A stretch of DNA of 43,577 nucleotides, the filler included, from Jimgerdemannia flammicorona (lineage: Eukaryota): NCBI GenBank assembly GCA_003990765.1. It is 2 parts of 2 records of this genome, joined end to end, with 100 filler letters (N's around TTAATTAATTAA, not from the genome) between each part and the next. Parts side by side here need not be neighbours in the genome. Positions count along the whole stretch, not along the records: positions 21,841 to 43,577 come from RBNJ01001403.1; 1 more part is not named here. One strand, given 5' to 3'. The position numbers were made by a program, and so were the translations under genes. The notes below the pieces were generated by a model. The model was not told where the DNA came from, did no database searches, and worked only from the letters and a program-made list of their open reading frames with translations. Of the stretch, positions 5,192-43,577 are shown piece after piece; the stretch's first letter is position 1, and every line of letters begins with the position of its first letter.

Positions 5192-5199
5192 TATTTATA
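5192..5199 (-). promoter_or_regulatory. Putative LTR TATA box
   Basis: TATAAATA followed by CCCC on the element strand about 500 bp from the LTR 3' end; same motif in the other LTR. Confidence 0.55.
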
Positions 5200-6775: not shown

Positions 6776-6789
6776 ACTCTCCCCTTCTT
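6776..6789 (-). promoter_or_regulatory. Gypsy polypurine tract
   Basis: Minus strand AGAAGGGGAGAGT directly before the 3' LTR. Confidence 0.9.
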
Positions 6790-7202
6790 AGCTTTCGACG
6801 TCCTCATCGGGGCCTTCTAATTTGTTCTAGTGTTGTTACACCGTTTGGGAGGTCAAAAGTCTGGTAAGGTTCATTTTTTCTCAGAAAGTGGCATGCTCAT
6901 AGTACAGTTGCTTAACGCATTGGATTCACACATTAAAGGGTCATGTGTTCAATGCCATGTGCCGGAAGTGATTCTGATGTCATTCACTGCTGGAGAATTT
7001 CCTCTAAGGAATCTTCTTAAATGTCTACGCCTTGTTTCCCACCAGTGGTACGGGGAGAATAGGCTTGCTTTCAGTTTTGCTATTTTTCCAGAGGGTCGGT
7101 ATTCTTGTCTTGTTTTGCTGAGTTCCTGACTTGGTTCATGATAGTTATAATGTTCGGGAGGATAATATATAGTATGTACGGATTGATGCAGAGTATTTGG
7201 TT

Positions 7203-10836: not shown

Positions 10837-10860
10837 AGTAGGTTGGGCTGGGGCCTTGGT

Positions 10861-11268
10861 TGATGAGCCAAATCCTTTAGATCCTCGGATAGTGGGTAGT
10901 AGTTCAGGGACTTCCTTGATTGTCAGGGTTGACTCGATTTTTTCGAATAGGATCTGGGTGATGCAGAAGCCAATAGGGATCTTGAAGGGTGTCCAACTGT
11001 GATTTCAGATGAGGACAATGATTTCGCCTGTATAATCTTTGTCAATGATTCCTCCTTCTACTGAGAGTCCTTTCAGTGCTAGGCTGCTGCAACAGCATAT
11101 TCTTCCAACATGTCCTTCAGGGATTTGGATACTGATTCCTGTATAGACTTGTTTGACTTCTCGGTTAGAAACAGTAGCTTCTTTGGCTGCATACAGGTCA
11201 TATCCGGCTGCTTTTTGACTTCCTTTAGTTGGGGCTTTAGCAGTTTGTCTTAACTTGACAAAGTCTAG
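10861..11268 (-). pseudogene. dut: Trimeric-type dUTPase domain in frame with gag and pol
   Basis: Manual translation: AAGYDLY, GRIxxx[31 protein letters not shown] (motifs I-V); one TGA at 11005-11007, so the ORF track misses it. Confidence 0.93.
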
Positions 11269-11316
11269 TGTTCTGGTAGTCAGGTTGTTGAGGTGGTGCA
11301 GAGTGGTAATAGTTGC

Positions 11317-13311
11317 TCATGTTGCTGTTTGGGGTTTTCGGTTGGGGCAGGCACTGGCCATGTGTCCTGTCTTTCGGTAATAGAAGCATGCTCCGCTTCT
11401 TCGAAGTTCATTTCTTTCGCCTTCAGTAAGTTTCTTGAAGATACTTGGCTGAGTGGGTTCATGATTTCTGGGTATCCAAGAGGTGGATGTGGAGGGAGCT
11501 CGAGATGCTTCATGCTTGGGTTCTTCTTTCTTAGTCCAAGTCTTTTCCTTGTTGTTGAATTGTCTTCGAGGCAGAATTGGTCCAGCTGTTAGGATTCGCT
11601 TGACCATGGTCTTGATTCTTACTAGACACCATTGTTGGTGATCACAACCAACTAGGCGGCCTTGTTCTCGGATTTTTCTAGTAAGCAATTCAGGCAGTGC
11701 ATCGAATAAATGGTCTGCTCTTGTACCATTTCGTGCTTCATCGTTGGCAATATATCCTAGGCCAACAGTGTTCAGGAGTGACTCGAGTTTTGTATAGAAG
11801 GTTTCAAATTCTTCTTTGCCATGTATATCAAATTTGAGGTTGCGGAGTTTTACTCGAGATTCAGCAATCATGGTTTCGCTGTGGTATTGAGCAATCATGA
11901 GTTGTTTGAGTCCAGGGGCTACAGGATGGGCTCCATATCCTGGGGCATTGTTTGCTGCATTCTGAGCAACTACTGCAGGTTGGGTATCCCATGTGAGGGG
12001 TTTTTCAGGAAGGGTTCACCACCATTCTTCGGCAGGTCCTCGGAAGAATGTAACAACTCGGTGGACATAGGCTGTAGTTGTAGCAAAGAGTTGTTCTAGA
12101 GTGTGATCTTGATTGTTTGTCAGAACGTGGTCAGCAACTCATTCATTGGTCCATTGATTGGCTTCAAAGTTGGTGTCAACTACACTAATGAAGCTTTGGA
12201 CTTCTTGTGCAGTACTATTGAAGGTAGGTAGGCTCAGATTTTTGGTAGGTCGGGTCTGTTCGGCTAAGACAGTAATGGTTGCTGCCATTATAGCTACTTG
12301 GGCTGTGAGATCCAGAATCTGTTGGTTCGCCATGTTGATTGCTGGAGGCGGTTGGACTGCTGGTAGTGGTGTTACTGGTACTACTTGAGGTACTGGTGCC
12401 GAGTGTGATAGAGTTCTTTGGGTCTGTGTAAGCTGCTGGAGTAGTAGTTGTGGATCTGGAGTGAGGGCTTGATAGATAGCTGTTTGTTGCTGTGTAGGTG
12501 TATTCTGTCCTGATGGGTGTGTGTCTCCTTCAGTGGTGTATCTGGGATCGAATTCGGTGAGATACTTCTCCTCTTCTTCAGTTTGGTCCCCGTGTAATTG
12601 GGTTTGCTCGGCGTCAAAGTAGACAGAATCAGTTGTATATCTGATTTCAGATGGACTTAATTCAAAGTCAAGTTCAGGTTCGGTATTGGTTTCAGATTCA
12701 GGTAGGGTTATAGCAGGGCCTGCTTCAGGTTCAGGGTCAGGTAGTTGATGAAGGGTTTCTCTTGCTTCTTCTTTAAGAATATGGTGGGCCTTGCTGTTCT
12801 GGAATCGGTAGTATAGTGCGGTCTTGGTCCTGGTGCAGTGAAAGTCAGTAGAGTTGAGCCACTTGGCTACAGAGGCTTGGGCTTCGTGAGGAACTAAGGC
12901 TAGAAAGACTGCTGCTGGTTGTCCTAGGTTGCTCGGATTTGTGGAGCTGACAAAACTCTTGTTGAGAAGAGTAAAGAAGGCTTCAATAAGACCTTCTTCA
13001 TCTTGACTTGCTGGGTGTAGTGCAAGGAGTTCGGTGAATAGCGTTTCGCCTATTTGCTGGTTTAATCGGAGTACTTCTTTCTTTGAATGAAGTTTGTCCC
13101 ACTTGTTGCAGGTGTGGAGGTCAAATTGTCCTTGTATGTCAGGTTCAATTCTCTCCAGATTGTCAGATGGTTCGGATAAATTCCAGTTCAGAGGTTGGGC
13201 TTTATACCAACTTGTAGGAATTCGCAGAAGGGTTTGTAGCGGGGTGAGGAAGTGTCTTGAAGCAGAATTGGATTGTAAACCGCTGCTACCAAGTTGTAAG
13301 AGGGTTACTTT
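11317..13311 (-). pseudogene. gag: Gypsy gag with long N-terminal open frame
   Basis: Same frame as pol; LPTF capsid-like start after MANQQ (12333); degenerate zinc knuckle CFYYRKTGHMASAC; TGA stops at 12139, 12016 and 11317. Confidence 0.88.
13280..13291 (-). promoter_or_regulatory. Gypsy primer-binding site, tRNA-iMet 3'-end type
   Basis: TGGTAGCAGCGG 3 nt downstream of the 5' LTR. Confidence 0.85.
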
Positions 13312-15377
13312 TTAGGGTGACCGTTACATAGTTCTGGAAGAGTTTTCTGGATATTCTGGATATTCTGGAAGACCGTTTTCTTATGGTCAAGATCAATTTT
13401 GTATGGAGTACGTCCTCTACGCTTATTGATTTCAAGATCGGGTTGACGTCTCAACCAAAGTCCTTTTTTGGACTAGTTCTGGATGTTCAGGATCTTCCGT
13501 ATTTCAGGAAGTTCAAGAAACTAAGACCAGCTTAGTTGAATTGGCATATCGCTGCAGACAATACCCAATTAGGAAATTTTGTGATGGGGTTAGGAGTAGG
13601 ACCTAACAGAGAGCGGATTTACTTAAGAGTGGTTTGTGAGTTATGGAATAGGTTTATTTGCTATTCATGATATTGCTATACTAGGAGTATTTGTGTGAAG
13701 GGATATTGTGGGGAAGTGCTCAGGAGTTGTGTTCGGATTGTTCAAGTCTTCAAGTCTATTCGAGTCTGAGATTCTGAGGTCTGGGGGAGGGGGTATTTAT
13801 ACTAGTGGGGAACTATCTGGACTATGCTGAATATGGATGTAGCACTAAGTGCCTTGCTGAGTCGGAATGCAGTCACGTAGTACAAGTGTGATCTGACATG
13901 TCAAGAGATCGTCTGACTGCTGAGTCAGTTCACAGTCACATCGTACAAGGCTAATCTAAGTATACTATGACTGCTAGGCTATTTATGGGTTTAGGCACTA
14001 TCTGGGTAGTCTTTGATGACATCACCATCGATTGCATCATCTCTGATGAAGTAGTCATCTAGGAAGAGTGGTTCGTGGATTACTTCTCCTTGTTGGCTGA
14101 GGTAGTAATACATTGGGACTTCATCTCCATCCCACAGGATAGCATCATCTGTTTTGTATACTGGATAAGGTGTTGGTGGGCGAAGGATGGATGTACTGTC
14201 TTTGCTTTCATCGGATTCGCTGTCTGTGTACCTTCTATAGGTTACAGCACTATGAGTTGCGGGGTTATAGTATGCTGGTGGCTGTGGTTCATGTTGCTCG
14301 TACTCAGGTGGTGGAGTGGTTGGTTCGATCTCGAGGGTTGTCTGAAGGTACAGGTTGTGTTCTCCGGTCTCTTCATTGTAATTGAAGTAATCGGGGGTAA
14401 ATGCAGGTTGGTATTTGTGCCAGTGGTCATTGTCCCAATAAGTCTTGTATGCAGTTATGAACTGTTGCAAGTTCATTGGCAAGATTGGCGGAGTGATCAG
14501 GGTTGGCAGAGATCCTTGGCTAGAGGTCATATCGGCATCAGAGAGATCATTGTCTTCTGCTTCATCTTCATCGAAGTGGATTATATCGTAGATGTCCTTC
14601 ATGGCATATCCGACTTGAGGCATTTGTAGGATATAGTCATCAGGTTGCGGGAAGGTTCTGTCTGTAGTTTCGACATACTCGAGGTACTTGTGGTTGAGTT
14701 CTTGTATCATGTCATCGATTTGGCCATAGGACAGGGTAGCAACCATTTCGCTGGTAGTGACTCGGAGGCGGGGAATAAAGGTTTGTACTCATAGAAGAGT
14801 TCTCGATGTTTGCGGGCGATAAGCTTTTAGTATTGAGACATCTGGGTAATATCTGTATCATGGTGGTGTTCGACCATGTCTTCTAGGAGGTGGCCAATCT
14901 GGTAGTAGCTTGAGATTTGTCCGATTCGGTTGGCCTCGCTAAGCATGTTCAGGGCATTCCATCAGGCTTCCATGAAGTAGAGGGGTGCCAGGCTATGGAT
15001 ATTCATGAGGGGCAGAGGGGGTGTGGCTTGGTTGACAATGGCATTCCAAATGTCAGCACGGATGTAGTTGTAGATCTCAGTGATCATGTTTGTGTATTTT
15101 GGAAGTTGTAGTTATTGTTTGTTTTGGTTTTCTGATTCGACGCGTCTCGGTGCTCAGTATATATATATTTGGTCCTGATTGGTAAGGTTCCGTTTGTGTA
15201 GATCTTATGTTCCATGACTTCATATTGACTCAGCTTTATACACTGTGACTTCGGTTTGACTCAGCTTCGTGATCAAGCAGGTGATTTCCAGATTTGTTCA
15301 GAGGTCGCATGTGATTTCAGTGGCTTTGTTCAGAGGGTGACGTGTAATTTCGGTGGCTTGGAGGTTGTGCGCTTATA
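13295..15377 (-). repeat. Gypsy 5' LTR (2083 bp)
   Basis: TGTAAG...CTTATA (terminal CA mutated to TA), followed by TSD CTCTT. Confidence 0.97.
13991..14746 (-). CDS. Second copy of LTR-encoded ORF-B (251 aa)
   Basis: Near-identical to 5389-6144, uninterrupted. Confidence 0.65.
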   Translation of the reverse strand: MVATLSYGQIDDMIQELNHKYLEYVETTDRTFPQPDDYILQMPQVGYAMKDIYDIIHFDEDEAEDNDLSDADMTSSQGSLPTLITPPILPMNLQQFITAYKTYWDNDHWHKYQPAFTPDYFNYNEETGEHNLYLQTTLEIEPTTPPPEYEQHEPQPPAYYNPATHSAVTYRRYTDSESDESKDSTSILRPPTPYPVYKTDDAILWDGDEVPMYYYLSQQGEVIHEPLFLDDYFIRDDAIDGDVIKDYPDSA

Positions 15378-17703: not shown

Positions 17704-17837
17704 TGTTGTGGAATGGGGAGAAAGAAGCGAATTGTTTATTGATACTAGCTTACGCGCTTTTACGCGTGCTGATGACGTTTACAGGATGACGTAGTCAGGC
17801 TGCGCCATCGAGTTGCTATAACTAAGATATTTCAACA
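17704..17837 (-). repeat. Copia 5' LTR (134 bp)
   Basis: Matches 980-1119. Confidence 0.95.
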
Positions 17838-21740: not shown

Positions 21741-21840
21741 NNNNNNNNNNNNNNNNNNNNNNNNNNNNNNNNNNNNNNNNNNNNTTAATTAATTAANNNN
21801 NNNNNNNNNNNNNNNNNNNNNNNNNNNNNNNNNNNNNNNN
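21741..21840. other. Assembly gap with artificial all-frame stop linker
   Basis: N runs around TTAATTAATTAA (21785-21796), 100 nt in total. Confidence 0.97.
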
Positions 21841-24800
21841 TTTTTGTAGTCTCTTGGACTTCACTATTTATTACCATTCTATTAGCTATAAGTACAGAAC
21901 CTCATCCCACTACCCAATCCCCCTAGAGGGACCTCTCTCCATACTCTCACACTTAAATATCATCCTATCACCCATTACTCCAACTCTCTCCTTACTCTGC
22001 CTACAAATTTTTTCTACTAATCAATATTACCTACCACTCTGCAGACTCTGTCCCAGCCACCAGCCTGTCAAAACATCCTCCATCAACCCTTTCTATCTTG
22101 ACAGCTGGTTTCCCATATCTAAATATTTTCCTTTCTCAAAAACAAATAACCAGTAATCTGCTAGCCCCACCTATACAGCCAATACTCAACCTAAAGTGAG
22201 CTACTCCTTCCCAATCCCCTCTATCAATCTATCCTTAAGATCCTCCCATTGATTCCTCTCAGCATTCCCCCTATATACAATACCCAAATGAAACCCAACT
22301 GCTAATCAAAAATCACCAAGTATCTCACACTCTCTCAGTCAATATTCTGGCATCTGCACAAACCCTCCTTTCTGCCCTACATTATAATACTCCTTACAGT
22401 CAAAACTCCTCCCCTCCACAAGATGGCCTGAGTGAAGGTTGAGCATAACATTCCTCCATCATCCCTTTCTCCACTACCTTACCAGTCACAAAGTTTGGTA
22501 GGCAACCTTCTAAGTCCCCTTTCCTCTATTATTACCCCCCCTCTACCTCAGGTTAGTTTGCTGTGCCTACATGGGCATAGTGGAAGGAGGGCAATAGTGA
22601 TGAGTTGCCCCTTTATCAGTATCTAATTGGTGTCTTCTTCACTTTTTCATGGTTTCTGGTATCTTCAGCTGCATCTGGAGTGCATTCATTTTGGTGCGGT
22701 ACCTTCTTCCTTTTGCCATCACCAACAAGGTATTGTCTCAGTATGTCTCAGACTATGTAGAGAGTTGGCTGACCTTGGGTATCAAGTGCTCAGTATAGGT
22801 TACCTACAGATCCTTGGTATCTATGGTGGAGCCCTCTGGCTTTGGCAAGCTTCCCGGTGAGCACAGTTCTAGCATAGGTGACTACTTTTCAGATATTGTC
22901 AGGATGGGAGGGGAGATGGCCATTACAGATAGGAGAAAGGGCGATAATGGTGAACCAGTAGGATACCAGGCTGGGGGTGGTCATTGGGGCTGGGGCAGGT
23001 GCTGCTTTGGTGGGGCCTTTTGATTGATGTGGTGCAGTTAGGTAGTAGGTGTCACTCTCGGCTTCTTTTGGTGGGTTGGTGGGTTAGGCCCCAGTCATCA
23101 GGGGGGGTCGGGGGGCCCAAGGCTACTCATTTCAGGCATCTTGGCTACACTCAACTGGAACCGGGTGCTGACATGACAATGTGATCAAGGCCCACAGACT
23201 TGAGTAGTGGGGTATTGGGGGTCTCCTTCCATCTCATGTGTAAGTTCTTTACTCACCTTGACTGGGAGAACCAGGCCCTACCCACCATGTTGTACTTTGA
23301 TGAGAGTTTTTCTTTGCCTGTCATTCTCTTTGGGGAGGCAGGGGCTATTCTATTCGGCTCAGACATAGCCTTGTATATACATTGGGTTCTCAGGCATGTG
23401 CTTTTGGTCATTGGCATATGGTTGGGTTTCCCCTGGTGGTAGAGAGAGCATGGTGTGCAGAATGAGGTGCAGGCCAACATAGGCCCTGCTGTGCCTGATA
23501 TAGTCAAGCTGCTGGACAATAGCTAGCCTAGGTTAATGGGGGGGCAGTACTTAGTGGGTGGTGGGGGAGGGTTTTGGCCTATATAGTCTAGGTTCCCTTC
23601 CAATAAAATTCCACAGGACATGAGTCCATTAAAAAAAAAAATAAAAAAAAAATAACATTCCTCCACAGCATATGCTATCAGACCACCCAGTACTTAGGTA
23701 GTAACTATCTCCTCACCTCCATACTCTAGGCCCAGACTCTATTTCAGTTTCACTTCTCCCCAATATCTGCTATCTACCAGCCACCAGGCCAAGCATCCTG
23801 GCCCAACCTCCTCTGGTATTTGACCCTATCTCTAATATCAAAATCCAGAAAGAGTGTATCCCCCAACAATACTCTATCCCATCTCTATATTGCCAGGTCC
23901 CAAGGCTCCTCCCCTTTATCTCCCTGCCAGTGGATTCCAATGTAGTGAGCCCCATCTACTACACCCCACCAGAAGCCCTTATACTGCATGTGCCCACTAT
24001 TTTGAAGCCCAACCAAGGACAGCCAATCTCCAGTTAAGCCTCTTGGTGAGCACCTCATCTTCCAGATCTTCTTCATCAGTGGAACCCAGCTACCACTCCT
24101 CAGTTCCCCCACTCTCTTCAGCCACCATACTCTCAAACAATGCAGTCTCTTCAGGAAGTTAACCAGCCCAAAGTCCTACTCTAGACACCAGTAATGATAA
24201 GATTTCCCAGCTAATCTGACTCCTCCTTCCCATCCAGATCCAATTTCTATCCAACTACAAAAGCCTCTTCACCACCCAGGCCAGAAAGTCCAGATGATAT
24301 ATCAGATACCACAGCTTTAGCAGTCGGTAGACATTCAAAATTGTAATATGCCCCACTAAAGAAATGTAGTAGCCTCTCCAACTCTACAGGGCCTCTCCCC
24401 AGATAGCTACTCTCTATTCCCACCAAGGTCTTGGTAGAATGGACCCATATACTAAAAGATATATACCCAAGTACCTAACAGCCTCTTCAGTAGGGACAAT
24501 TGTTACAATGACATCCCCTCCCACCAAGCCATTGCTCAATACTATTATTTTGTACTTATACCAGTTGAGTTTTGCTCCAGAATGTGCCTTGTACCACTCT
24601 ACTATTTCTCAGAGCTCCTCAATATCTGCAATTGATCTCAGGCCATTTACTATGTCATCTGCAAAGGCTCTAACTTTCCACACCACACCAAATACTAAGA
24701 GTCCAACTATCTTCTGCCAGATCTTATCCATCAAAGGCTCTAAGGATAGAGTGTACAAAATAGGTAACAGTGGGTCCTCCTGGGGAATACCCATATTCAG

Positions 24801-27800
24801 AGGGAATGCCACCCCTCTATGTCTATTATATATGAGCACCACTTGACTTCCTTCCAACAGGCTGACTATTGCCTCCCAGAATTGCTGGGGGACACCAATT
24901 CTATCTAGTACCTTTATCAGCCAGACCTGCCAAATATAGTCATAAGCCTTCTTCTGATCTAAGAAGACCATTCTCCCATCCAGTCTACAAGCACAAGCCT
25001 CTTCAATAACACTATGCACCCATGCTGTGCCATTCCTAATAAGCTGGCCCCCAATAATGTCTCACTACTCCTCTCCCAAGACTTGCTGGGCCACCTTCTG
25101 TAGTCTTGCCACCACCACCTTAGTGACCAACTTCCTGTCTATATCCAGCAGTATGATTGACCACCAGTACTTCCAGTCCTCCCTCCTACTCTTGTCCTTA
25201 AAAAGCAGTACCACCAGCCCCAGATCCTGCTCACCCACCCATCTCTCTGACTGCAGTACTAAGTTACAAAGCACCATCAACTCTACCAGCACTCTAGGGA
25301 CTTCTACCATCTTCTCCCAAAAGTCCCAGAACAGACCATCCTCTTCTGGTGCTGTACCTGGCATAGTTATGGCAAGAACCTAACAAATCTTCTCCTCTTG
25401 TACTGGCACTACCAAACTGTCCAGTCCATCTACTTATAGTGGGTGCCAATCCTCCAAAGTACATTCTATGGCAGCCTCATCAGCCCCACTCTCCTCCTCA
25501 CTCTACAAACCACTCCACCTCTCTTTCAGTGAGCCCATGATATCTTAGGAACCATGAATCAGTATACTATTGGAATCTAGGACCCCCTCTCATCTCTGCT
25601 GCACTCTCTTTGCTCTAAGGGACTCTGAAATAAACTTAGAGAGCCTCTCTCTCTCCTCCAGCCCCTACCAGTGCAGCTGTATAGCCAAACCCTATACCTG
25701 TATCTTCTCCTCCTCCCTCAACACTTATTGTAGCTCTGCAACTACTATCTTTACCTGCCTCACCCTTCAGTCCTCCATCTCCTCCAAAGCTAAGAGCTCT
25801 GCCCAATCCTCCAAAAGCTCAGCTAATCTAGCAAAGTCCAGGTCACCCTCCTTCTCCTCTGTCTTCCAGCCTCCTTTCTAGCTACACTCTAGTAGACCTT
25901 AGCAGCCTCCTTCAATCTCATCCATCAGACACTCACTGGGGCCCCCTCCTATATCTAACTCTCCATTTGCTGCCAAATGTCCTCAACTCACTTTTTCCAC
26001 AACACCTTCTCAGCCAATAAAGAGAAGTTGAGATGCCAATGTCTAGGCTCATCCCCACTCCCTCCAAAGTGACTCTGCCCCAATAGCCCACAGTGATCAG
26101 ACCCTGGACACCACTCAGCCTCCAGTGATTTCCAAACATCCAAACCCCAGTGATCTGTTGTCAATATCCAGTCAATCCTTGTCCCCAGACCATTGGTCCA
26201 GTGTGTGTAGACCCTCCTATCTCCCCAGAGTCCCCTAGCAGGATCCACTAGAGAACTTAGCCTCTCTACTTTCTCCCATAACCCCAGACCCCTGCTCTTA
26301 CTCTCAGCCCCCTGCCCTCTATCAGTCTTATTCATCTATATATCTCAGACCATATTAAAGTCCCCTCCAAGAATATCTCCTCCTGCCTCTGCAAGGGCCC
26401 CACTCTCCTGGAGACCCTTCATCCAATCCACTCTCTCACCATATATAGCAGGGCAGTAGCAGGACTCCACTGTAACTAGCTCCCAACCTGATTGAATCCA
26501 CTCTCCCCAGACCAGCCTATCTCCCCAGCTCCTCATATCTTATATCTCCCCTCTGCCTCTCTGGACCAAGATCCCAACCTTACTATTCCAAACTACTACT
26601 CCTTTCCATTCTGGCATCTATTGCAATCTGTCCAAGTTGTCTTCATATCTAACATCCTGCAAAAGAAAGAGATCAGTCTCCAGACTCTTAAGCTAAGTAA
26701 AAATATTCCAATGTTTAACCAAACCCCACAGTTAATTTAAATTTGAAGAAAAAATATTCATTGTACTATTTATAAGAAATAATATTAAGAGTCCTGCTTG
26801 CTCTCTACAACTCTATATCTATCCTTTCCTGTATCAAGTCCCCATTGTGTTCTATAGCCACCTTCTCCTCTTTAACTCTCCTTGCCTCCATTCTTCCCAG
26901 AAGTTCAGTTAGTTCCCCATTCTCTTTTTCCTCAAAATCCTTATAATACTCTAAGCAGACCTTCTGCCAGAGCTGTAATTCATAATGCTCTGCTCAACAG
27001 AAGGCAGCCTGCTCACCAGCCACCACTGTCAGCTCAGCCTCCCTCTCTTTATCAATCTCATACCCTTTCCTCTCCAAGAAAACTATAAGTACCTCCACCT
27101 TCAGTGCCTCCACTATTCTATTACCATACAGAATCCTTGCCCAATGCTCATCACTCATTACTCTCAGGTCCACTTCTCTCAACTCTTCAGCCACAAAGTT
27201 ATTCATCATCCAGCATATCTATTGTAGGTTTCCCACCTCCTTCCCCCCTGGAGTTGCTGGACTTCCTCCACCCAGCATGGACATATCTACTCCTGTACTT
27301 GTAGTCTCATCCCACCCATCCTCTGAGACATCTACCAGTTTCTTCTTGCCAGCTACCACCACTTATCCCCTCTTTGTTACCTTAGAAAATCCAAAGTATA
27401 CTTGCTGGGCACTACACATTAGCATATCCTCTACTGCCCAGCCTCTTACAGCTGATCCCCACCTAATAAGAGGAGGAGGAGTATCCTCCCAGACTTCAAA
27501 TGTACAATCCTCATATAGGTTCTTACTCAGTGCCTTCCTGGCCTCCTCTGGACCCACCTCTACAATCTCTCCACTACTGCCAGCCCAGATACTCACTTTG
27601 GCTCCTCCAGTATCCTCACCACTACTAGCAGTTCTCTTTGCCTCTCTCTCTAGTTTCACCAGTAACTCTCTCTGCTGCTTACATTCTTGAGACATCTTCC
27701 ATATCTTCTTATTCATACAGTATCAATAATCTCTATGTGCATTGACTCTACATATGTCTTCTAAGCCTTTACTCTTTACTCCACTATACTACTCTGCTTC

Positions 27801-28810
27801 TCCAGTGCCTCCAACAGGTCCTCTTCCTCCTTCTTACTCCCCTTCACCCTCATCACCTTGTGCACAAAGGCTCTCCACACTATCACTATAGGCCAATCAT
27901 GAGCCTTCTCAGTAGCCTCTCTCCCTGTCAACCAAATCTAGATATCAACATCTCTTGTCTGGAAGGAGGTCCCTCTCCAGACTCTGAACTCTACATTGAC
28001 TATCTCTCTATACTTGGCTATAACTTCCTCAACTCTCCTACTTATCTCTACAACAGTCACTATAGGAACCCCTTTCACTAGGAGCTATACTACTCTGGGA
28101 TCCTATCTCAAGCAGTACACTATCAGAACAGATACCTCTTCAACTGTCAACCCAGTCTTCAGCACCTCCTTCAATGACCCTCCCCTTCCAGGTCCCTCAG
28201 GAACTTAACAGATGCTGTACCATTCATCTACTTAGTAATCAGCCCTAAAACCATCTTTGCCATCACTGCCAAGCCCTGGAAGCATAAGGTAACTGCAAAC
28301 TCTGAGATCTATTTCTTAAATAATAGGGCCACCACTAGGTCTATTACACCATCAGCCAGATCACTAGGCCTTATGTCCTTCCCACAACCCAGTTCACTAT
28401 CAGTAGTCCCATTTAGATTTTTTTCCAGATTACCCATCATGCTCCCATCAGTAGTTACCCCCTTAGCTACTACACTGTAAGCTCCACTACTCTGGCCCCC
28501 CCGAGAGACTCCCCCCTGCTACTGCTATCCTGCAGTCTTTGCCACCTCCTAACCCCTCCTCAGTCAGCTCTCCAGTCTAGTCACCAGCTGTCTCCCCTTT
28601 ACCATATCTGCAAAACTCACTCTCCTGATTTCCCATCCTCCAACACTGCTCTCTCCCCTTCTATATTCTCTCACTAACAGGTCCCTTATACTTTCCCCCA
28701 AGCCTGGGCCTCTCTCTACATATTACCAGTCAAACACACTTGGGCCCCCCTACCTAGTATACACCTCAGAATACTCATTTCTCACCATGTTACTAGTATC
28801 ATTTCTCTAA
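21841..28810 (-). mobile_element. Decayed two-ORF LINE, L1/Tx1-like
   Basis: ORF2 remnants from ~26761: APE endonuclease (N..GL, LLQD, LGGDFN, RIDWIL, SDH) and RT (LDQKKAYD, GIPQEDPLLPILYTLSLEPL, AFADD, YLGI); ORF1-like region ~26790-28790; T-run (poly(A) tail) at the gap; 5' boundary approximate. Confidence 0.9.
22459..23651 (+). mobile_element. Nested poly(A) retroposon (probably a 5'-truncated LINE) in opposite orientation
   Basis: Perfect 14-bp TSD ATAACATTCCTCCA (22445-22458, 23652-23665); AATAAA at 23602-23607; A-tail at 23631-23651; composition differs from flanks. Confidence 0.88.
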
Positions 28811-30605
28811 AAACTATGTTATGAGTATTGTTAAATAGTTGTGTAATCTGAATATTACTAGAGAAAGATGGCAATCTACATGGCTATGTAGTTCTTTGTA
28901 TAATTTATATATGAGTTCACTATTTAGACTGTTGTATAGTTTATATCCTTGCAGTTAACAGACATATAGTTTGGTGTCTACATCACTATTTAAGAATACT
29001 GTCTTTATATCTATTTGATGGATTTTGAGATTGTATACCACACCAATCACAAGGAGTATTCTAGGTAAAGTAAGCTTAAATACTAGCAAAAATATCTCAT
29101 TGTAGTCTATACTATAATCTTGTAAATAACTCTTAGCAATAAAATGAGCTTTATATTACTCTACATTGTCATCAGTATTATACTTTATCCTATAAACTTA
29201 CTTGGATCCAATTGCTTTATAGTTGGACAGATAAGATACTAGGTCTTAGATACTATTCTTGATAAGTGAATTGTATTCCTCATCCATTGCATGTTCCCAT
29301 TTCTTACTATCTAGATATTGCATAACCTTGTTGTATGTACTTGGCTCACCAGAAGATATCATAATATATGTACATTTGTATACTTTGGTATAGCTCATAT
29401 GGTCTTGATATTGCTACTATCTAGAGCTCACTTGTATGTCTCAATAACTTCCTAAATCTGAATATATCTCTTGGTATACATTGGACTACTTTTGCATTTG
29501 TTTACTCTTCATAGAAGATCCTTTATTATTGTATTCATCTTTGATCTCAGTAATCCTTAGCTTAGAGACATATAGTGGTTGGAAATAGTTTTGATTAACT
29601 ACTGTAATTATTGGAGATATTGATAGTATCAGTTGTTGTACTAGCTAGAACATAAAGGTTTCTATGGATATTTCTACATAGATTTTCTTATTGTTTCCTT
29701 TTTTTATTGAATTATATATTATGCAAAATCACTATGTATTTCATATATAGATTCCAAAGTCTATATGATTTCCCACATTTTGAAGCTATCATTAGCATTT
29801 TGTTATCATGTGAATTATACACTGTTATATCTTTTGAATATATGTGGATCTCTTTGTTGTTATGGAACATCATTTTTCCTATAGAGAAGAGGTTCCTTCC
29901 TATCTCCAGAGTATACAGTACATCTCCAAGAGTTGCAGCTAGCTTGACAACATTTCTGTAGAGATATATTCTTACATTTTTCTTTCCTTGAGTATAGATG
30001 ACATTGTTATCTTCTAACTTGATAGGTATAGGGTGTTCAAAAGGCTCATATATAGGGAACTATTCTCTGTGTAACATGACTCCAGAATCCATTAACCAGA
30101 CATCATTGTCATTGACTATATTGATACATTCAGTAGATATATTATTGCTAATGATACTGATATCATCACTACTCTTTATCAGCCCAAAAGTATTTTGCTG
30201 ACTGGGATTTATAAATGATAGATTGGTGGATTTCATGGTATATCTTGTACTGGTAGTAGAACTACTTGTCATAGATATTGATCTTATACTAGCAGAATTG
30301 ACAGTAGAGCTAGTGGCTTGTGCAAAAAATAGATTACTGCTTTCATCAGTTTCAGCAGTGTTTGCATTATTATACTTCTCTCTATAGTTTTTTCTACTAC
30401 TCTCACATTGTCACTATTGGCTTTTACCATATTGTTGCTTATTTTCACTACTCTTCTTAGCTATAGAAATAGTATTTCCTATATTTATACTTGCCACAGT
30501 ATTCATAGTAACCATTATACTTAATTGATTAGCTGGACTGATTATTGCATTATTGATCTTGGGTTTGGGTTCATCTTGTTTGGCCTTATTGCCCATGCTT
30601 CTCTT
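28811..30605 (-). pseudogene. Copia fragments (gag end and protease, deletion, then RT N-terminal half)
   Basis: WLMDSG protease motif (~30090); EPSTY...KWEHAMDEEYNSL, YKAHFIAK and QIDIKTVFLN RT motifs (29350-28990). Confidence 0.85.
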
Positions 30606-35841: not shown

Positions 35842-37904
35842 ATCTTTAGTGGCTTCTTTGGTTTGTACTTCAACTTTTCAGACTGAGGTTTATTCACTCT
35901 TATCTCTAGGATATTTTATATAGTTGTGGTTACTACCTGGTTGCTATGTGGCTAATTATAAAAGGCTATTTATGGTAGGTATTTCTAGCTTGATATAAGT
36001 ATTCAGGTCCTGTACAAGTATTCAGATTCTATATAGATAAATATACCCTTTTTGGTATATCTGGCTAATTATATAAGTTGTTATGACAAAGTAGTCCTAG
36101 ATATCTCCAGATATGTTTAACTGTCTTTTTGTATACTTATGACTATTAAGTATTAGTTATTTTATAATATTTCTACTGCTTATCACAATATATTGGCCTA
36201 TACATATATTTATATATATAAGGTTAAGAATCCTGAATATACATTTTAATCATTCCTCAGATAGTTACTGAGATACTTTGTTTTTTGTACATATCTTACA
36301 AAGGTTATCTTCTGGATATATATATATTGATAATCTATTTCCAAGCCACTTCAGATCATTCTTTTAAGGTATAATTTGTTAATATGTCCTAAGCATTGAT
36401 ACTATATATTGGATATATCAGACATAGTTGTTATATATATATGCAGAGGCTTTCATGTCATTCCTATTTGTTATATTATTGATCATATAAAGATTGCTAT
36501 ATTTCAAGACTATTATTAGTTTATTGTCATTCAAATTATATATAGTTGTGCTCTTTGAATATATATATATCTCTTTGTTACTACAAGATATCATCTTATC
36601 TATCAAAAGAGGTTTTTACTAATTTCTAGAATATATAGTATGTCTAAGAAGATGTTAATGAGTTTTATAATATTGCTATAGAGATGTATCCCCATATTTC
36701 TCTTTTCTTGAGTATAGATGATATTGTTATCTTCTAGTTTAATAGGTATAGAGCATTCAAAATGCTTATACATAGACAATTATTCCCTATGTAGTATTAT
36801 ATATTATATGGCTTTAGAATCTATTAGCTAGATATTATTATCATTAGTAATATTAGTATTTGTAGTATATTTATCAGATGTATGACTATGTAAACTACTT
36901 GCTCTATTGGTATTTTTACTATTAGTAGTGCTGATGTTATTATTACTTTTTATCAGATAAAAAGTATTTTGCTGCTGATTAGAATTTATAGATAATAGGT
37001 TAATAGATAATGAGTTGGTAAATTTAGTAGTAATGAAACTGTTTATAGAAATATAGTTATCTATATATGTTACTTATGTGAAGAATATACTACTGCTATT
37101 AGTTTCAGTAGTATTTATATTATCATACTTCTCTTTATCTCAATAGTTCCTATACTGGCTTTTTTTATACTTATTTTTACTACTCTTTTTGTTATTTTTT
37201 CAGTGATAACAATTGTACTTCCTATATCTATACTTGCCACAGTATTCACAGTAACTATCATACTTAGTTGATTGGCTGGACTAGTTATTATATTAATTTT
37301 AAGTTTGGATTTATTAGTCTTATTATCTATACTTTTGACCTTATTTAACTGCTATATCTGCAGGACTAATAGAAGATATTTCCATCATTATCACTATCAT
37401 TTTCATAGTATATTTCCTCGTTTATACATTATTATGTTGACATAGTCTATGAGTCTGCTGCTCTTATATATATTTATAATAATATTATTATATATATTCA
37501 GAAGTGCTCTTATAATTGCTATAACCCTTTCTTCATTGCCAATACAGTCTATAGATATACTGAGAGAATTTACTTAATTTACCAGATCATTGATGTAACT
37601 GGTATATTTATAGATACTCTTCTTAGGTTTTATTTATATATTAAATAGCTGAGATTTTAGATAAAAACAATTTGATATGAATACTTACATATGATAATTA
37701 TATAGAGTTTGCTATATCTCATGAGCTATTATAGTATATATTATGAGCTTTATTTGAGAATTCAATAATATAAATATGATCTTATATAATACTTAGTAAT
37801 TATTTATGGTATCATAATCTTGAATCAGTACTTATAGCTTCATATACTCCACCAAGCTATATTTGTTAAGGAGATTTGATATGAAATATCCAAATAGTAT
37901 AATT
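35842..37904 (-). pseudogene. Decayed Copia gag-PR-IN fragment
   Basis: ~36400-37330 aligns by eye with the Copia gag/PR at ~29690-30605; integrase-like remnants at 35850-36300. Confidence 0.75.
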
Positions 37905-38412
37905 GCGGTGGAGGAAGAAGGCCCAGCGGGAGCCAAGGGAGCGAACCCAGAGCCAGTGTCAAAGCGAACGGAAGACATGTGGAAGAGCATGTATAAGGGG
38001 GACGAACAAAGAATGTAACCGAATATGCATCAGCCGTTTATTGCTATGTAAAAACGTGGTCCTTATATACAAAATACGATGTCCCAAAAGGGAGGACGTG
38101 CCACAACTCGGGGCGAACCAAATTAGGAACCACATGACCGCTGGAGATAAGCAGAGATAAAGGGGGAGCCAATCCCAGTTGCAGGATAAAAATCACAAAC
38201 AAACACAAACAAAACAAATCCAAATTGAGATTAAAAAACATCTGCAGACCCCAGAGGGGTGAGCGTGAGCGAGGGGTGAGGCCGAAATGGAGTGAGCAGC
38301 AACAAGCCCGAGCGAAGCGAGGGGCCGAAGGCAGCGGAGGGGAGCAGAGTAAGGCCGAGACCCCGGAGCGAGCGCGAGACCCCAGAGGGGGCAAGGATGT
38401 TTTTTAAATCTC
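37905..38412 (-). repeat. 3' pseudo-LTR (hairpin segment, promoter arm, start of next ORF1)
   Basis: Reverse complement of ~41626-42133; 3400-bp direct-repeat period with the arm ending at 41642. Confidence 0.88.
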
Positions 38413-40488
38413 TCCAGCAGAACCGGAGGCACCAGAAGGTGATAAAAACGCAAAACGAGAGTGATGGATTGAAGAAGAAACAGAGGGAAGACGCGAACGA
38501 GCAATCAGAGGGTGTCGGGAAAGAGATGAAAGTCCATGGCGTGAAAGAGAAGAGCGCAGGACGGTATCAGGGCGTTGGGCAACCCAGCGAGCATGATCAA
38601 ATGGTATGATGAGAATCGGGGGTGGGAAAGAAGAGGGGGTACAGAGTGGGTAAGGGGGGAGAGAGGGAAGGGAGGGGGAGTAAAGGGGAGAGAGCAGGGA
38701 AGAGCGAACAACAGACCATTCAACAGAAGCAAGCAGATCGTGAACGATAGAAATGGGGTAGGCACGACGATGGACCACGAAGTTGCTAAGAACCCGAACA
38801 GCAGACACCCAATCAGAATGATGGGAGCAGCATAATGCAAGACAATGAGCCTCACCACGAACACATTCAAGAAGAGTGTGACGGGGATGGTTGGACAAGA
38901 AGTCAGGGAACTGTTGGGAATGGGGAAACTGGGAATAAACAACAGTTCAGAAGGGAGAAAGAGAAATGGAAAGGTTCAAAAAGGGAATACTAGTCGTACC
39001 GCACACCCAAGTAATGGAGTGATGGGGAGGGTAGACGCCCAGAAACACACTAGGGATATCAATGCCAGCAACAGTGAAGACAATAAAGTCATCAATGTAT
39101 TGGCGAAAGAAGATATCCCCAGCCTGGAATGCAATGGAAAGAGGTGAAGTAATATCACGTAACGCACACAATTCATGGGCCAGGCCAACGAGGTTGGCAA
39201 GGGTGGGGGCACAATTCGTACCCATGGCAATACCAGAAGTCTGGTGAAAAGAGCCAAGGGCCGACTCAAAATAATTAGAGCCGCAGACGAGGAGCGTAAG
39301 CTCAACAATGGAAGCCAACGAAACCGGGGAGTCCGAAGGAAAAACTAAGGAACCCAAGAAGCGAAGGCAATCATCGATCTCATCAAAACGAATAGCAGTA
39401 TAGAAAGAAGAGAAGTCACCAGAGGCCAAATGAGAAAAATGGTGAACAGGCACAATGGTGGAGCAGAGAAGGGCGAGCTCCTGAGTATCACGAAGGATAG
39501 TATACTCAGGCCCAAGACGGTGTTGTAAGAGAGCCATCCAGGAGAGAAAGAAACGGGATAACCATTTCGAAATCTCGGTGGTAGGAGAACTGTAAGCAGC
39601 CATAATAGGATGCCAAGCCAAAACAGGCTTGTGAACTTTAGGAAGAGCATAGAAAACTGGAAGAGAAATGTCCAGGGAGGACAAAGAGTCCTGGAAGAAG
39701 TTAAAAAGGGGGTTCGCGAACAGGGAATCCAAAAGCGATCTAGCGTGAGCCAGAGAAACCTGAAGAAGTATGAGAACCTCATCCAATCCAAGAGCACTAG
39801 GCTCGTAAGCCACGGCTCGAAGGAGGGCAGAAAGGCCATCAAGGTAGAGTGACTTAGGAATAAGTGCAAAACCCTGATTCTTATCAGTGACTGTGAGTAA
39901 ATGCATAGGCAATTGCTTGACCGATTTAAGCGCGGTACGTATGGCACGGTCCGAAACCAAGCAAGAGCGAGCTCGTCCAGGAACGGACAGTGAGCAAGCC
40001 ATGTCGAGGAATACGCAGTGTGAAGAGACATTGGGAGGGGGGACCCAATTGCTAGGAACAAAATAGCGAGAGGGCATCTCACCACGATCTTGAAAGAAGA
40101 TAGCAAGGTCAAGAGCATGATGAAAACATGTTAGATGAGCCGGATCAGTAAAGGAGAATTGTGAGGGAGTCGCAGGAAAAACAAAGCGAGGACCCAAGGA
40201 TAAGGCAAAGACTTGAAGGGGAGAAAGGGGGCAGTCAGCCAAAGAAAAAGGAGGAGACAAAAGTGTTCCAAGAGAAGAATAAACCCGAAAATTCGGGACA
40301 AGCAACTGGGAAAGGCGAAGGGGGGACAATATGAGGAACCACTCAGAGCGCACCAGAAGTGACGATGGAATCCGAGAAGGGACAGGGACACTGGGGGAGA
40401 ACCATGCCGGGGGAAAGTTTAAGAGCAGGAGGCCTTCCCCTTCCCTCTGACTTTTTTTGAAGGTGGCGAGCCTGATGAGCGGGAACAC
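38404..40488 (-). pseudogene. Penelope-like reverse transcriptase (ORF2), one in-frame TGA
   Basis: LSLGPRF, FYALPKVHK...WHPI...SPT, GDFSSFYTAI, GIAMGTNCAPTLANL, YIDD, IPFLNL, SNHPRH...GE; ORFs 38947-40488 and 38404-38898 are in one frame, split by TGA at 38947-38949. Confidence 0.92.
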
Positions 40489-41378
40489 ACCCCGTCAGAG
40501 TGCCAGACCTTGCGGCCACAGGCTTTCGTGCAGCCCTTACATTCAGGGGCACGGGTGGAGGAGGCGGAGGAGGAACCGGCAGAGGAGGCCGAAGGCGAGC
40601 GAGCAGCCGAAGGGGCAGTAGTGCGAGGAACACCACCATGAGGACAGACAGACTTGGCCGGGTGCCAGTAGGCACGGTGGAGGCGGCCGGAGCAGACAGC
40701 GCAAGGCCAGGCCCTGACGGGGCAAGAACCAAGTTGGCGGCCATGCTTGGGGGCAGGGGGAATAGAGGAGGAAGCCTTGGCGAGGGAGGGGGACCGGGAA
40801 GAGGCCGACGAAGCCTGGTTGGGCTTGGCAGGGGTCTTGGCGGGGGTCTTGGAGGGGGCCTTGGTGGTGGCGGCGGCGAAGGAATGAACCTCAGCACGAG
40901 CAGCAGCACGAGCCTCGGTGCAGATGGCCTCGGAGACCGAAACCTCAGGAGAGGCAGGCAGGGGAGCAGTGGCGGCAGCGCGAGCAGTGGTGGCATGAAC
41001 CTCTTCAGAGAGGGCTTGGCGGCGGGCCTCAGGGAGAACAGAGTAGCAGACGGTGGGCAGAGCGATGACGTCGATGTCATGGCGGAGATGAGCCTCCTTG
41101 GCAGAGAGGGCAAGAACCAACCGGAACTGAGAGAGGAGCGGACGACCAGAAGGATGAAGGTCCAGGGGGAGAGAGAGGATGGCAGAAGAGACGTAGGTCT
41201 TGAAGGAGACAGTGGCAGGGGTGAAGGCAGGGGGAGGGGGAGGAGGAAGTACCTCATCCATGAGCTCGTCAATGAGGACGGAGGCCCCGAGGGCAGGCAG
41301 TACAGCAGCAGAGGAAGAAGGCCCAGCAGGAGCCAAGGGAGCGAACCCAGAGCCAGTGTCAAAGCGAATGGAAGACAT
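40419..41378 (-). CDS. PLE ORF1, internally deleted copy (319 aa)
   Basis: Ala/Ser/Pro-rich, two Cys/His clusters, basic C-terminus; overlaps ORF2. Confidence 0.8.
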   Translation of the reverse strand: MSSIRFDTGSGFAPLAPAGPSSSAAVLPALGASVLIDELMDEVLPPPPPPAFTPATVSFKTYVSSAILSLPLDLHPSGRPLLSQFRLVLALSAKEAHLRHDIDVIALPTVCYSVLPEARRQALSEEVHATTARAAATAPLPASPEVSVSEAICTEARAAARAEVHSFAAATTKAPSKTPAKTPAKPNQASSASSRSPSLAKASSSIPPAPKHGRQLGSCPVRAWPCAVCSGRLHRAYWHPAKSVCPHGGVPRTTAPSAARSPSASSAGSSSASSTRAPECKGCTKACGRKVWHSDGVCSRSSGSPPSKKVRGKGKASCS

Positions 41379-41642
41379 GTGGAAGAGCGTGTATAAGGGG
41401 GATGAACAAAGAATGTAACTAAATATGCATCAGCCATTTATTGCCACGTAAAAACGCGGTCCTTATATACAAAATACGACGTCCCAAAAGGGAGGATGCG
41501 CCACAACTCGGGGCGAACCGAATTAGGAACCACATGACCGCCAGAGATAAGCGGAGATAAAGGGGGAGCCAATCCCAGTTGCAGGATAAAAATCACAAAC
41601 AAACACAAACAAAACAAATCCAAATCGAGATTAAAAAACATC

Positions 41643-41795
41643 CTTGCCCCCTCTGGGGTCTCGCGCTCGCTCCGGGGTCTTGGCCTTACTCCGCTCCCCT
41701 CCACTGCCTTCGGCCCCTCGCTTCACTCGGGCTCGCTGCGGCTCACTCCGTTTCGGCCTCACCCCTCGCTCGCGCTCACCCCTCCGGGGTCTGCA
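41643..41795. other. 153-nt asymmetric spacer at the centre of the large inverted repeat
   Basis: Reverse complement of 38243-38395; bounded by TTAAAAAACATC / GATGTTTTTTAA. Confidence 0.9.
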
Positions 41796-41968
41796 GATGT
41801 TTTTTAATCTCGATTTGGATTTGTTTTGTTTGTGTTTGTTTGTGATTTTTATCCTGCAACTGGGATTGGCTCCCCCTTTATCTCCACTTATCTCTGGCGG
41901 TCATGTGGTTCCTAATTCAGTTCGCCCCGAGTTGTGGTGTGTCCTCCCTTTTGGGACATCGTATTTTG

Positions 41969-41975
41969 TATATAA
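41969..41975 (+). promoter_or_regulatory. Putative TATA box of PLE ORF1 (mirror copy at 41463-41469 on minus)
   Basis: TATATAA about 85 nt upstream of the MSS start (42060), retained in all three arm copies. Confidence 0.55.
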
Positions 41976-42059
41976 GGACTGCGTTTTTACATGGCAATAA
42001 ACGGCTAATGCATTTTCGGTTAAGTTCTTTGTTCGTCCCCCTTATACATGCTCTTCCAC

Positions 42060-43277
42060 ATGTCTTCCGTTCGCTTTGACACTGGCTCTGGGTTCGCTCC
42101 CTTGGCTCCCGCTGGGCCTTCTTCCTCCGCTGCTGTACCGCCTGCCCTCGGGGCCTCCGTCCTCATTGACGAGCTCATGGATGAGGTACTTCCTCCTCCC
42201 CCTCCCCCTGCCTTCACCCCCGCCACTGTCTCCTTCGAGACCTACGTCTCTTCTGCCATCCTCTCTCTCCCCCTGGACCTTCGTCCTTCTGGTCGTCCGC
42301 TCCTCTCTCAGTTCCGGTCAGTTCTTGCCCTCTCTGCCAAGGAGGCTCATCTCTGCCATGACGTCGACGTCGTCGCTCCGCCCGCCGTCTGCTACTCTGT
42401 TCTCCCTGAGGCCCGCCGCCAAGCCCTCTCCGAAGAGGTTCGTGCCGCCACTGCTGCCACCAAGCTCGCTGCCGCTGATGCTGCCGCTGCTTCCGCCGCC
42501 ACCACCTCCGCCTCCTTCCACCATGCCTGTGCCGCTTTCGTGACCTTTGCCTCCTCCCGCCTTTTGGATGCTGCCCACTTCTGTGGCTTCACCATCCATG
42601 AGGTTCCTTCTGTCACTGCCGACATCGATGCTGTGCGTTGTTTCCTCCTCACTGGCACTTCTCTTGTTGCTCGCCTTCACGAGCAGGAGTCATCACGTGC
42701 TGCCGCCACTGCTCGCGCCACCGCCACTGCTCCCCTGCCTGCCTCTCCCGAGGTTTCGGTCTCCGAGGCCATCCGCGCCGAGGCTCGTGCTGCTGCTCAT
42801 GCTGAGGTTCGTTCCTTCGCTGCCGCTACTGCCAAGGCCCCCTCCAAGACCCCCGCCAAGACCCCCGCCAAGCCCAACCAGGCTTCATCGGCCTCTTCCC
42901 GGTCCCCCTCCCCTGCCAAGGCTTCCTCCTCTATTCCCCCTGCCCCCAAGTGTGGCCGCCAACTTGGTTCTCGCCCCGTCAGGGCCTGGCCTTGCGCTGT
43001 CTGCTCCGGCCACCTCCACCGTGCCTACTGGCACCCGGCCAAGTCCGTCTGTCCTCATGGTGGTGTTCCTCACGCTGCTGCCCCTTCGGCTGCTCACTCG
43101 CCTTTGGCCTCCTCTGCCGGTTCCTCCTCTGCCTCCTCCACCTGTGCCCCTGAATGTAAGGGCTGCACGAAAGCCTGTGGCCGCAAGGTCTGGCACTCTG
43201 ATGGGGTGTGTTCCTGCTCGTCGGGCTCGCCACCTTCAAAAAAAGTCAGAGGGAAGGGGAAGGCCTCCCGCTCTTAA
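42060..43277 (+). CDS. PLE ORF1, full-length copy (405 aa from MSSVRF)
   Basis: Intact ORF homologous to 40419-41378 plus 86 aa; followed by the RT N-terminus (LSLGPRF) to the window end. Confidence 0.82.
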   Translation: MSSVRFDTGSGFAPLAPAGPSSSAAVPPALGASVLIDELMDEVLPPPPPPAFTPATVSFETYVSSAILSLPLDLRPSGRPLLSQFRSVLALSAKEAHLCHDVDVVAPPAVCYSVLPEARRQALSEEVRAATAATKLAAADAAAASAATTSASFHHACAAFVTFASSRLLDAAHFCGFTIHEVPSVTADIDAVRCFLLTGTSLVARLHEQESSRAAATARATATAPLPASPEVSVSEAIRAEARAAAHAEVRSFAAATAKAPSKTPAKTPAKPNQASSASSRSPSPAKASSSIPPAPKCGRQLGSRPVRAWPCAVCSGHLHRAYWHPAKSVCPHGGVPHAAAPSAAHSPLASSAGSSSASSTCAPECKGCTKACGRKVWHSDGVCSCSSGSPPSKKVRGKGKASRS

Positions 43278-43577
43278 ACTTTCCCCCGGCGTGGTTCTCC
43301 CCCGGTGTCCCTGTCCCTTCTCGGATTCCGTCGTCGCTTCTGGTGCACCCTGAGTGGTTCCTCATGTTGTCCCCCCTTTGCCTTTCCCAGTTGCTTGTCC
43401 CGAATTTTCGGGTTTATTCTTCTCTTGGAACACTTTTGTCTCCTCCTTTTTCTTCGGCTGACTGCCCCCTTTCTCCCCTTCAAGTCTTTGCCTTATCCTT
43501 GGGTCCTCGCTTTGTTTTTCCTGCAACTCCCTCACAATTCTCCTTTACTGATCCGGCTCGTCTAACACGTTTTCGTC

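Follow-up and report, generated by a model that had tools for sequence, protein, structure and literature searches.

A purine-laddered palindrome at the pseudo-LTR junction and inversion axis of an endonuclease-less Penelope-like element

The hairpin termini of Streptomyces linear replicons and of parvoviruses are located at the physical 3' ends of linear genomes, and short inverted repeats seed large palindromes, as in Tetrahymena rDNA and in yeast models. Penelope-like elements (PLEs) deficient in the endonuclease (EN), the Coprina/Athena elements, were reportedly described by Gladyshev and Arkhipova in 2007. According to the available portion of Craig et al. 2021 (PMC8557442), an inverted copy truncated at its 5' end is often found in PLEs beside the upstream pseudo-LTR, and some clades (Naiads) are, like the element described below, also devoid of canonical hammerhead motifs. 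Both strands of a DNA target are cut and extended by the purified protein of an animal PLE (Frangieh et al. 2024, PMC11167929), whose reverse transcription starts in vitro at an internal site, 111-118 nt into the ORF; the only structure mentioned in the main text of that study is an AC-rich stem-loop within the ORF. Second-strand synthesis and the composite tandem/inverted insertion of PLEs are unresolved in the field, and the same in-vitro study calls the steps 'yet to be validated' (PMC11167929). As for DNA structure, CGAG-type repeats form hairpins of G:C and sheared G:A pairs by NMR (available portion of PMC10085684), and d(GCGAAGC) is a hyperstable DNA mini-hairpin (available portion of PMC13037366).

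The window analyzed here, i.e. the whole stretch of 43,577 nt from Jimgerdemannia flammicorona, contains an imperfect palindrome of 186 bases (38227-38412, hereafter the module) directly after the RT gene of an EN-less PLE. Two elements, E1 (minus strand, complete, ending at 37905) and E2 (plus strand), are arranged head to head, with the following parts.

37905..38226, minus strand: 3' pseudo-LTR of E1, with a TATA-like box, AATAAA and the first 87 nt of ORF1 (ATG at 37991)
38404..40494, minus strand: RT ORF, with DKN, PKVHKP and YIDD motifs and an in-frame TGA at 38949-38947; endonuclease domain not found
40419..41378, minus strand: ORF1 of E1, proline/serine-rich, with Cys/His clusters, 258 nt shorter than that of E2; no Pfam match
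41305..41626, minus strand: 5' pseudo-LTR of E1, repeating 37905-38226 directly, 3400 nt away
41812..43577, plus strand: element E2, with its 5' pseudo-LTR reaching to 42133, ORF1 at 42048-43277 and the start of the RT frame at 43202-43576; runs off the window end

Judged from its sequence, the element is Penelope-like, with a telomerase-like RT, the PLE DKN motif, pseudo-LTRs and an inverted copy. The RT has 1892 relatives at E<=0.001; its match to Pfam RVT_1 (E 0.0058) falls below the cut-off, and PDB sequences gave no match at E<=10. No Pfam match to the GIY-YIG endonuclease was obtained in 9 frames/ORFs of the element, nor in any of the 57 relatives scanned from the best 150 of the 1892; 44 of these 57 contain RVT_1. 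A more distant relative, P0005, carries both RVT_1 and GIY-YIG. The original prediction had assigned the locus to an endonuclease-less Penelope-like element, in agreement with the DKN/PKVHKP/YIDD motifs of the RT, the pseudo-LTRs and the undetected GIY-YIG. It had also failed to find a hammerhead, and the Rfam search of both strands (E<=10; 37500-43577 and again 37900-38450) gave the same answer: hammerhead, HDV and other families were not found at the pseudo-LTR or the module, and elsewhere only chance-level snoRNA, CRISPR-repeat and lncRNA rows were retrieved. The whole window contains 0 matches to (TTAGGG)2 on either strand with up to one mismatch, and the element is flanked by AT-rich repeat DNA.

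The strand antisense to the ORFs is 65-72% purine across the element (37905-43577), corresponding to a pyrimidine-rich mRNA, which is an unusual composition for a retroelement. As the background for loop composition, the purine share of the antisense strand over the whole element is taken as 65-69%.

Several other features were observed in the window. A Ty3/gypsy-type element (4692-14746) encodes a 1046-aa pol on the minus strand (7696-10836; protease, RT, RNase H and integrase) and has long direct repeats 8602 nt apart, each with a 251-aa ORF without a Pfam match. This element and AT-rich DNA are bracketed by a 95-nt direct repeat (980-1074 / 17704-17798; 99% identical, 16.7 kb apart), which may represent the ends of a larger nested element. 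The block at 24001-29000 shows a strong C-over-G skew (GC skew -0.34 to -0.49) and has ORFs of 110-234 aa without a Pfam match, and runs of N occupy 21741-21784 and 21797-21840.

The pseudo-LTR repeat is a 338-nt stretch composed of the module arm and 322 nt, and the direct repeat of 37911-38242 at 41311-41642 has 94.6% identity. The 3' boundary of the unit is located 87 nt into ORF1, with module copy 1 lying 322 nt inside that boundary, and homology ends sharply at 37905, next to AATT, against AT-rich DNA. A RIP-degraded continuation of the element to the left of 37905 was rejected, as the purine/pyrimidine-collapsed identity there is only ~50%. By eye, a TATA-like box (38069-38061) and AATAAA (38041-38036) were identified on the minus strand, at distances of ~160-190 nt from the module, which they follow, and ~45-70 nt from the ORF1 ATG, which they precede. 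The positions of these motifs suggest an LTR-like promoter/terminator arrangement within the pseudo-LTR.

The module itself is composed of a closing stem and an inner segment, termed L. Each of the two unit copies has it at the corresponding position, and it occurs nowhere else in the window.

38227..38242, plus strand: left arm of the closing stem of copy 1, on the pseudo-LTR side, AT-rich, 16 nt; its partner is 38396-38412
38243..38395, plus strand: inner segment L of copy 1, 153 nt, 72% purine, 69% GC
38312..38318, plus strand: GCGAAGC with a GAA triloop, the apex of the predicted long hairpin; GTGAAGC in copy 2
38396..38412, plus strand: right arm of the closing stem of copy 1, on the ORF side, 17 nt, containing the RT stop codon
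41627..41811, minus strand: module copy 2, with arms at 41627-41642 / 41796-41811 and the inner 153 nt at 41643-41795; 94.1% identical to copy 1, in the opposite orientation

The arms of copy 1 pair as 6 + 11 bp with one bulged A, making a 16/17-bp AT-rich stem, and the RT stop codon TAA (minus strand, 38406-38404) lies inside the right arm. GCC-GAA-GGC is found at 38324-38332 and ACCCC-AGA-GGGG(T/G) at 38248-38260 and 38379-38391 of copy 1, where CGAAG cores occur at 38313 and 38326; GCG(T/C)-GA-GC-GA is placed opposite GGA-GC-GA-GCGC. L includes an exact 14-nt direct repeat (38246-38259 / 38377-38390) and four copies of AGCGA. It also has 13 YGAR motifs, or 8.5 per 100 nt, which is a roughly 3-fold enrichment over the element body (2.7 per 100 nt), and the maximum in any of 110 body windows is 7. 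The sequence features on which the original prediction was built, i.e. the stem, the 153-nt purine-rich inside, the stop codon in the stem, GCGAAGC, the GNA motifs and the G.A arms, could all be located.

All three minus-strand frames are open throughout the module. A protein search with the frames translated through it gave 43 candidates for the minus strand and 4 for the plus strand, none of them significant. In all three copies, a (CAAA/CACAAA)n-like tract adjoins the arm on the pseudo-LTR side (38194-38218, 41594-41618 and 41820-41844).

Folding of either strand with DNA or RNA parameters yields one long interrupted hairpin in 4 of 4 predictions. Inside the closing stem, the predicted blocks are CCCC/GGGG, GGGGT/ACCCC, GCGT/GCGC, GC/GC, GGGGT/ACCCC and GGCC/GGCC; the loops between them consist of purines throughout (AGA/AGA, GA/GAG, GA/GA, GA/GGA and GA/GAG), and the apical part ends in GC-GAA-GC. 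In this predicted fold, 74 of the 80 unpaired plus-strand bases of the 186-nt module (92%) are purines and 36 of its 40 cytosines are paired. One loop is a clean 2x2 G.A block (C/T-GA-G // C-GA-G), and most of the others are 2x3 or 3x3. The module had been pictured in the original prediction as separate mini-hairpins, but the single long hairpin is predicted to be far better: -61.7 against -36.6 kcal/mol for local mini-hairpins (pair span <=30 nt) with RNA parameters, and -21.0 against -15.2 kcal/mol with DNA parameters, so that the local fold would cost 25 and 6 kcal/mol, respectively. With RNA parameters, the purine strand folds better than its complement by 14-15 kcal/mol. A decayed perfect palindrome was rejected, since the mismatches observed set purine against purine, and transitions would have left A.C or G.T instead.

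To what extent the fold exceeds chance depends on the part considered. Against 200 dinucleotide shuffles, the whole module gives z values of -3.4 (plus strand) and -3.0 (minus strand) with DNA parameters and of -6.6 and -4.1 with RNA parameters, a signal that owes much to the closing stem. For the inner 153 nt, RNA parameters yield z values of -4.1 and -4.25 for the purine strand of the two copies, with 0/300 shuffles as good; the corresponding values of the pyrimidine (minus) strand are -0.8 and -1.4, with 60/300 and 23/300 shuffles as good. Only the purine strand, which is antisense to the RT and has the polarity of first-strand cDNA, beats the shuffles for the inner segment, and it is this strand that had been proposed as the foldable one. 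With DNA parameters, neither strand of the inner 153 nt is better than shuffles (z -0.5 to +0.6). Conventional thermodynamic models miss the stability of GCGAAGC, according to the available portion of a review of DNA mini-hairpins (PMC13037366), and therefore this null result neither refutes nor supports a DNA-level reading. Of the proposed DNA-type structure the motifs are present, with loops of the YGAR/CGAG type and the GCGAAGC apex in copy 1; the energy of the inner 153 nt lacks significance under the DNA model.

The palindrome alignment score of L exceeds that of shuffles in both copies (z 3.5, 0/1000; z 3.4, 3/1000), although the raw score is also reached by 20/110 windows of the element's own body. 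Long-range pairs (span >=60 nt) number 26-27 in L, a count matched by 1/275 body windows per strand, and GC-rich parts of the element body fold nearly as well (-60.7 kcal/mol). We consider the ladder to be real but statistically not overwhelming; what seems to be special in the modelled fold is the purine-only lining of one strand.

Copy 2 of the module forms the exact centre of a large inverted repeat of 1.5-1.8 kb (40119-41642 vs 41796-43577), with perfect 62-nt arms flanking its core (41581-41642 / 41796-41857), and the 5' pseudo-LTRs of E1 and E2 both begin exactly at the module stem. The three 338-nt pseudo-LTR copies (37905-38242, 41305-41642 and 41796-42133) have 10, 11 and 9 private differences. 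This equal divergence implies that the tandem and inverted duplications are of the same age, and, as far as the sequence can tell, both were probably made in a single event. Formation of the palindrome by a later chromosomal process is disfavoured by the same equality. Since there is a single inverted junction (n=1), its axis position could be the result of one repair accident.

The two module copies differ at 10 positions, a divergence of 5.9% as compared with ~5.4% in the flanks. The stem changes comprise one G.T/G-C, one T-A/C-G double change in a weak 2-bp helix and one C-G/T.G; from this alignment there is no clear excess of pair-preserving changes, which are too few for covariation. Throughout the repeat copies and the module, the copy-to-copy differences are nearly all CpG to TpG/CpA transitions, and the neighbouring DNA is extremely AT-rich. 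The bias points to a methylation-type or RIP-like decay with a CpG preference. ORF1 of E1 is without 258 in-frame nt that are present in E2 (40983-40995 vs 42455-42701), and loose ends of metagenome relatives at 40984/40987 suggest that the relatives carry the extra 258-nt segment.

The DNA of relatives was available as short metagenome contigs from four sequencing runs, with 80-99% likeness and no joints; match shares were small (soil metagenome run, 0.12; 'organism A', 0.05). In one relative, the arm is joined to the RT end although the adjoining 30 bases differ at 8 positions (loose end at 41629; by eye), and in another contig it is joined to the pseudo-LTR. In a variant arm from a metagenome contig (38408 A>T, 38409 T>C), neither the pairing nor the TAA is lost. 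Taken at sequence level, these contigs speak weakly for retention of the module and against an independent MITE. A search of JGI metagenome contigs for an RT read through its stop (X) gave 63 pattern matches, of which 0 were confirmed, and an exact 22-nt stretch of the module had 0 matches in JGI metagenome contigs, prokaryote genome contigs and viral contigs.

The palindrome probably marks the junction of two DNA copies rather than a telomere-like cap. We tentatively suppose, as a reading that is still short of being probable, that at this palindrome two converging minus-strand cDNAs pause and pair, each then priming the second strand of the other. The module would then be an integral part of the unit, an interrupted palindrome at the ORF/pseudo-LTR junction, ~160 nt upstream of the TATA-like box, at which minus-strand cDNA synthesis would pause. 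Two purine-rich cDNAs of like polarity, each primed from one DNA end of the target, would pair via the 16-nt arms and the GC blocks with G.A-lined loops between them, and each paired 3' end would prime second-strand synthesis on the other cDNA. The expected product would be E1 leftward, one module at the axis and E2 rightward, with the module setting the outer boundary of the pseudo-LTR.

Converging minus-strand cDNAs are of the same polarity, so that pairing between them requires a self-complementary sequence. Within the unit such a sequence is offered by the module alone, in which the mismatches on the strand of cDNA polarity are purine-purine. The pairing of cDNAs is further suggested by the position of copy 2 exactly between inverted-repeat arms that start at the module stem, and by the equal ages of the pseudo-LTRs, as expected of one insertion event. 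The purine-lined loops, the YGAR enrichment and the better folding with RNA parameters are all found on the strand of cDNA polarity and argue in the same direction. On the other hand, the upstream module must be contained in the RNA or be reached by template jumping, and the TATA-like box lies downstream of the module. The extension of both strands in vitro (PMC11167929) belongs to an endonuclease-bearing animal PLE of another lineage, and body windows attaining the palindrome score of L also weigh against this reading.

The module might instead act in the sense-strand RNA, as a stem-loop of the 3'-UTR/pseudo-LTR in a pyrimidine-rich RNA that serves RT/RNP binding, a template boundary or pause (as in telomerase RNAs), or 3'-end formation or termination. 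We regard this as possible, though somewhat unlikely. The Watson-Crick blocks can form on either strand alike, and folding of the sense RNA again predicts the long hairpin (-63.4 and -72.3 kcal/mol; z of the whole module -4.1); the module begins at the RT stop codon. In addition, PLE RTs are relatives of telomerase that initiate at an RNA stem-loop (PMC11167929). The purine-only loops of the antisense strand would simply be pyrimidine-only loops of the sense strand that follow the composition of the element, and with an antisense strand of 65-69% purine their composition is partly background. The 92% purine content of the unpaired antisense positions is nevertheless above that background, and the inner 153 nt of the sense strand does not fold better than its shuffles (z -0.8, -1.4). 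Moreover, GCGAAGC as the apex belongs to the antisense strand, the sense strand having a plain UUC triloop there, and the known initiation site of a PLE RT is inside the ORF start, not the ORF end (PMC11167929).

Selected function might also be lacking altogether. The module would then be a low-complexity purine tract of CGAG/AGCGA-like composition between the arms of a short inverted repeat, and host repair by microhomology annealing happened to use these 16-nt arms in resolving the composite insertion, which we consider unlikely. (GCGA)-like repeats are inherently self-pairing, and L holds direct repeats of self-complementary motifs, including the 14-nt exact repeat and the four AGCGA. The ease with which body windows reach the palindrome score (20/110) and fold (-60.7 kcal/mol) would be explained as well, and the divergence of the module between copies, not below that of its flanks, gives no sign of constraint. 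However, L beats dinucleotide shuffles in both palindrome score (0/1000, 3/1000) and purine-strand energy (0/300), and its long-range pair count is matched in 1/275 body windows only. The ladder is also coaxial with the 16/17-bp stem, and the arm is kept in the relative that differs at 8/30 of the adjacent ORF-end bases.

We find it quite improbable that the first-strand cDNA folds back on itself as a hairpin 'telomere', for a self-primed second strand or for end protection as at the termini of Streptomyces and parvoviruses. The better folding of the purine strand, the GCGAAGC apex and the tandem G.A contexts would fit, and if the cDNA snapped back at the module and was then replicated, a palindrome centred on the module would result as well. 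The role in telomeres or end protection that was originally proposed does not hold in this window, which is without telomere repeats and in which both copies are internal, flanked on both sides by element sequence. At 322 nt from the 3' boundary of the unit, copy 1 is too far inside to serve as a terminal primer at that boundary. Replication of a hairpin-capped end would leave a dicentric palindrome that reaches into the flanks, where E2 runs off the window, and the inverted arms are non-identical, with a 258-nt indel between them.

That a foldback element or MITE of independent origin inserted into the PLE, as the 16-17 nt terminal inverted repeats around a non-coding core might suggest, is very improbable, given that no target-site duplication is seen by eye at 38226/38413, the RT stop codon is inside an arm, both window copies and 3 metagenome contig pieces at the module edge (X1, X2 and X3) are contiguous with PLE sequence, and no further copy is present in the 43.6-kb window.

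Returning to the two converging cDNAs that would pair at the palindrome, one may go further and regard the module as a dedicated DNA-level device of a PLE lineage that is EN-less and hammerhead-less. The minus-strand cDNA would form a palindromic ladder made up of G:C and sheared G.A pairs, and through this ladder two cDNAs primed from the two sides of a break would pair, or one would fold back, for second-strand priming. We consider this extension doubtful. If true, it would explain the long-puzzling tandem/inverted pseudo-LTR architecture of Penelope-like elements; if the axis position is a one-off, the module is a mere odd low-complexity hairpin in a dead retroelement. In either case, the locus shows a PLE lineage without hammerhead, endonuclease and telomere repeats, and a palindrome at an inversion axis with non-canonical pairing potential on the cDNA strand only offers a concrete hypothesis that can be tested with oligonucleotides.

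As in pseudo-LTR PLEs (PMC11167929 and the available portion of PMC8557442), a partial tandem and a head-to-head inverted copy are placed beside the upstream pseudo-LTR here, and, as in the animal PLE (PMC11167929), the 3' boundary of the unit is inside the start of the first ORF and the flank is AT-rich. Unlike those elements, this one has no hammerhead motif and carries a 186-nt palindrome, which occupies both the ORF/pseudo-LTR junction and the inversion axis. The word 'hairpin' has 0 occurrences in the available portions of the texts of PMC8557442 and PMC13159263. What is known already comprises the element class, the pseudo-LTRs and the inverted copy; a purine-laddered palindrome at the junction and axis is not mentioned in the PLE literature searched, though an earlier description is possible. 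With the EN-deficient Coprina/Athena elements, including Coprina-1_Alen (available portion of PMC13159263), the locus shares the missing GIY-YIG, two ORFs, an RT with DKN and a thumb-like tail, and direct repeats of a few hundred bp. It differs from Coprina/Athena, in a comparison by features rather than by RT phylogeny, in that neither end has telomeric repeats within the window, the flanks are AT-rich repeats and a hammerhead is absent.

At the level of structure, the predicted fold resembles CGAG-block DNA (available portion of PMC10085684) in that YGAG faces YGAG between G:C pairs, with one perfect block, and the GCGAAGC mini-hairpin (available portion of PMC13037366) in its apex, which is intact in copy 1 and mutated in copy 2. 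Those structures are short oligonucleotides, whereas the present one is a 186-nt element of a retrotransposon with mostly 2x3 or 3x3 loops in a predicted fold.

The module has purine-purine pairs and GNA-type loops in common with the single-stranded fold-backs at Streptomyces and parvovirus termini; unlike these, it is internal in both copies, with no end visible in the window. It is also similar to the seeds of Tetrahymena rDNA and yeast palindromes, in that a kb-scale palindrome has at its axis a short inverted repeat whose centre is non-palindromic. In contrast to those palindromes, however, the arms here consist of retroelement copies as old as the tandem pseudo-LTR, which points to formation during retrotransposition rather than by a later chromosomal rearrangement.
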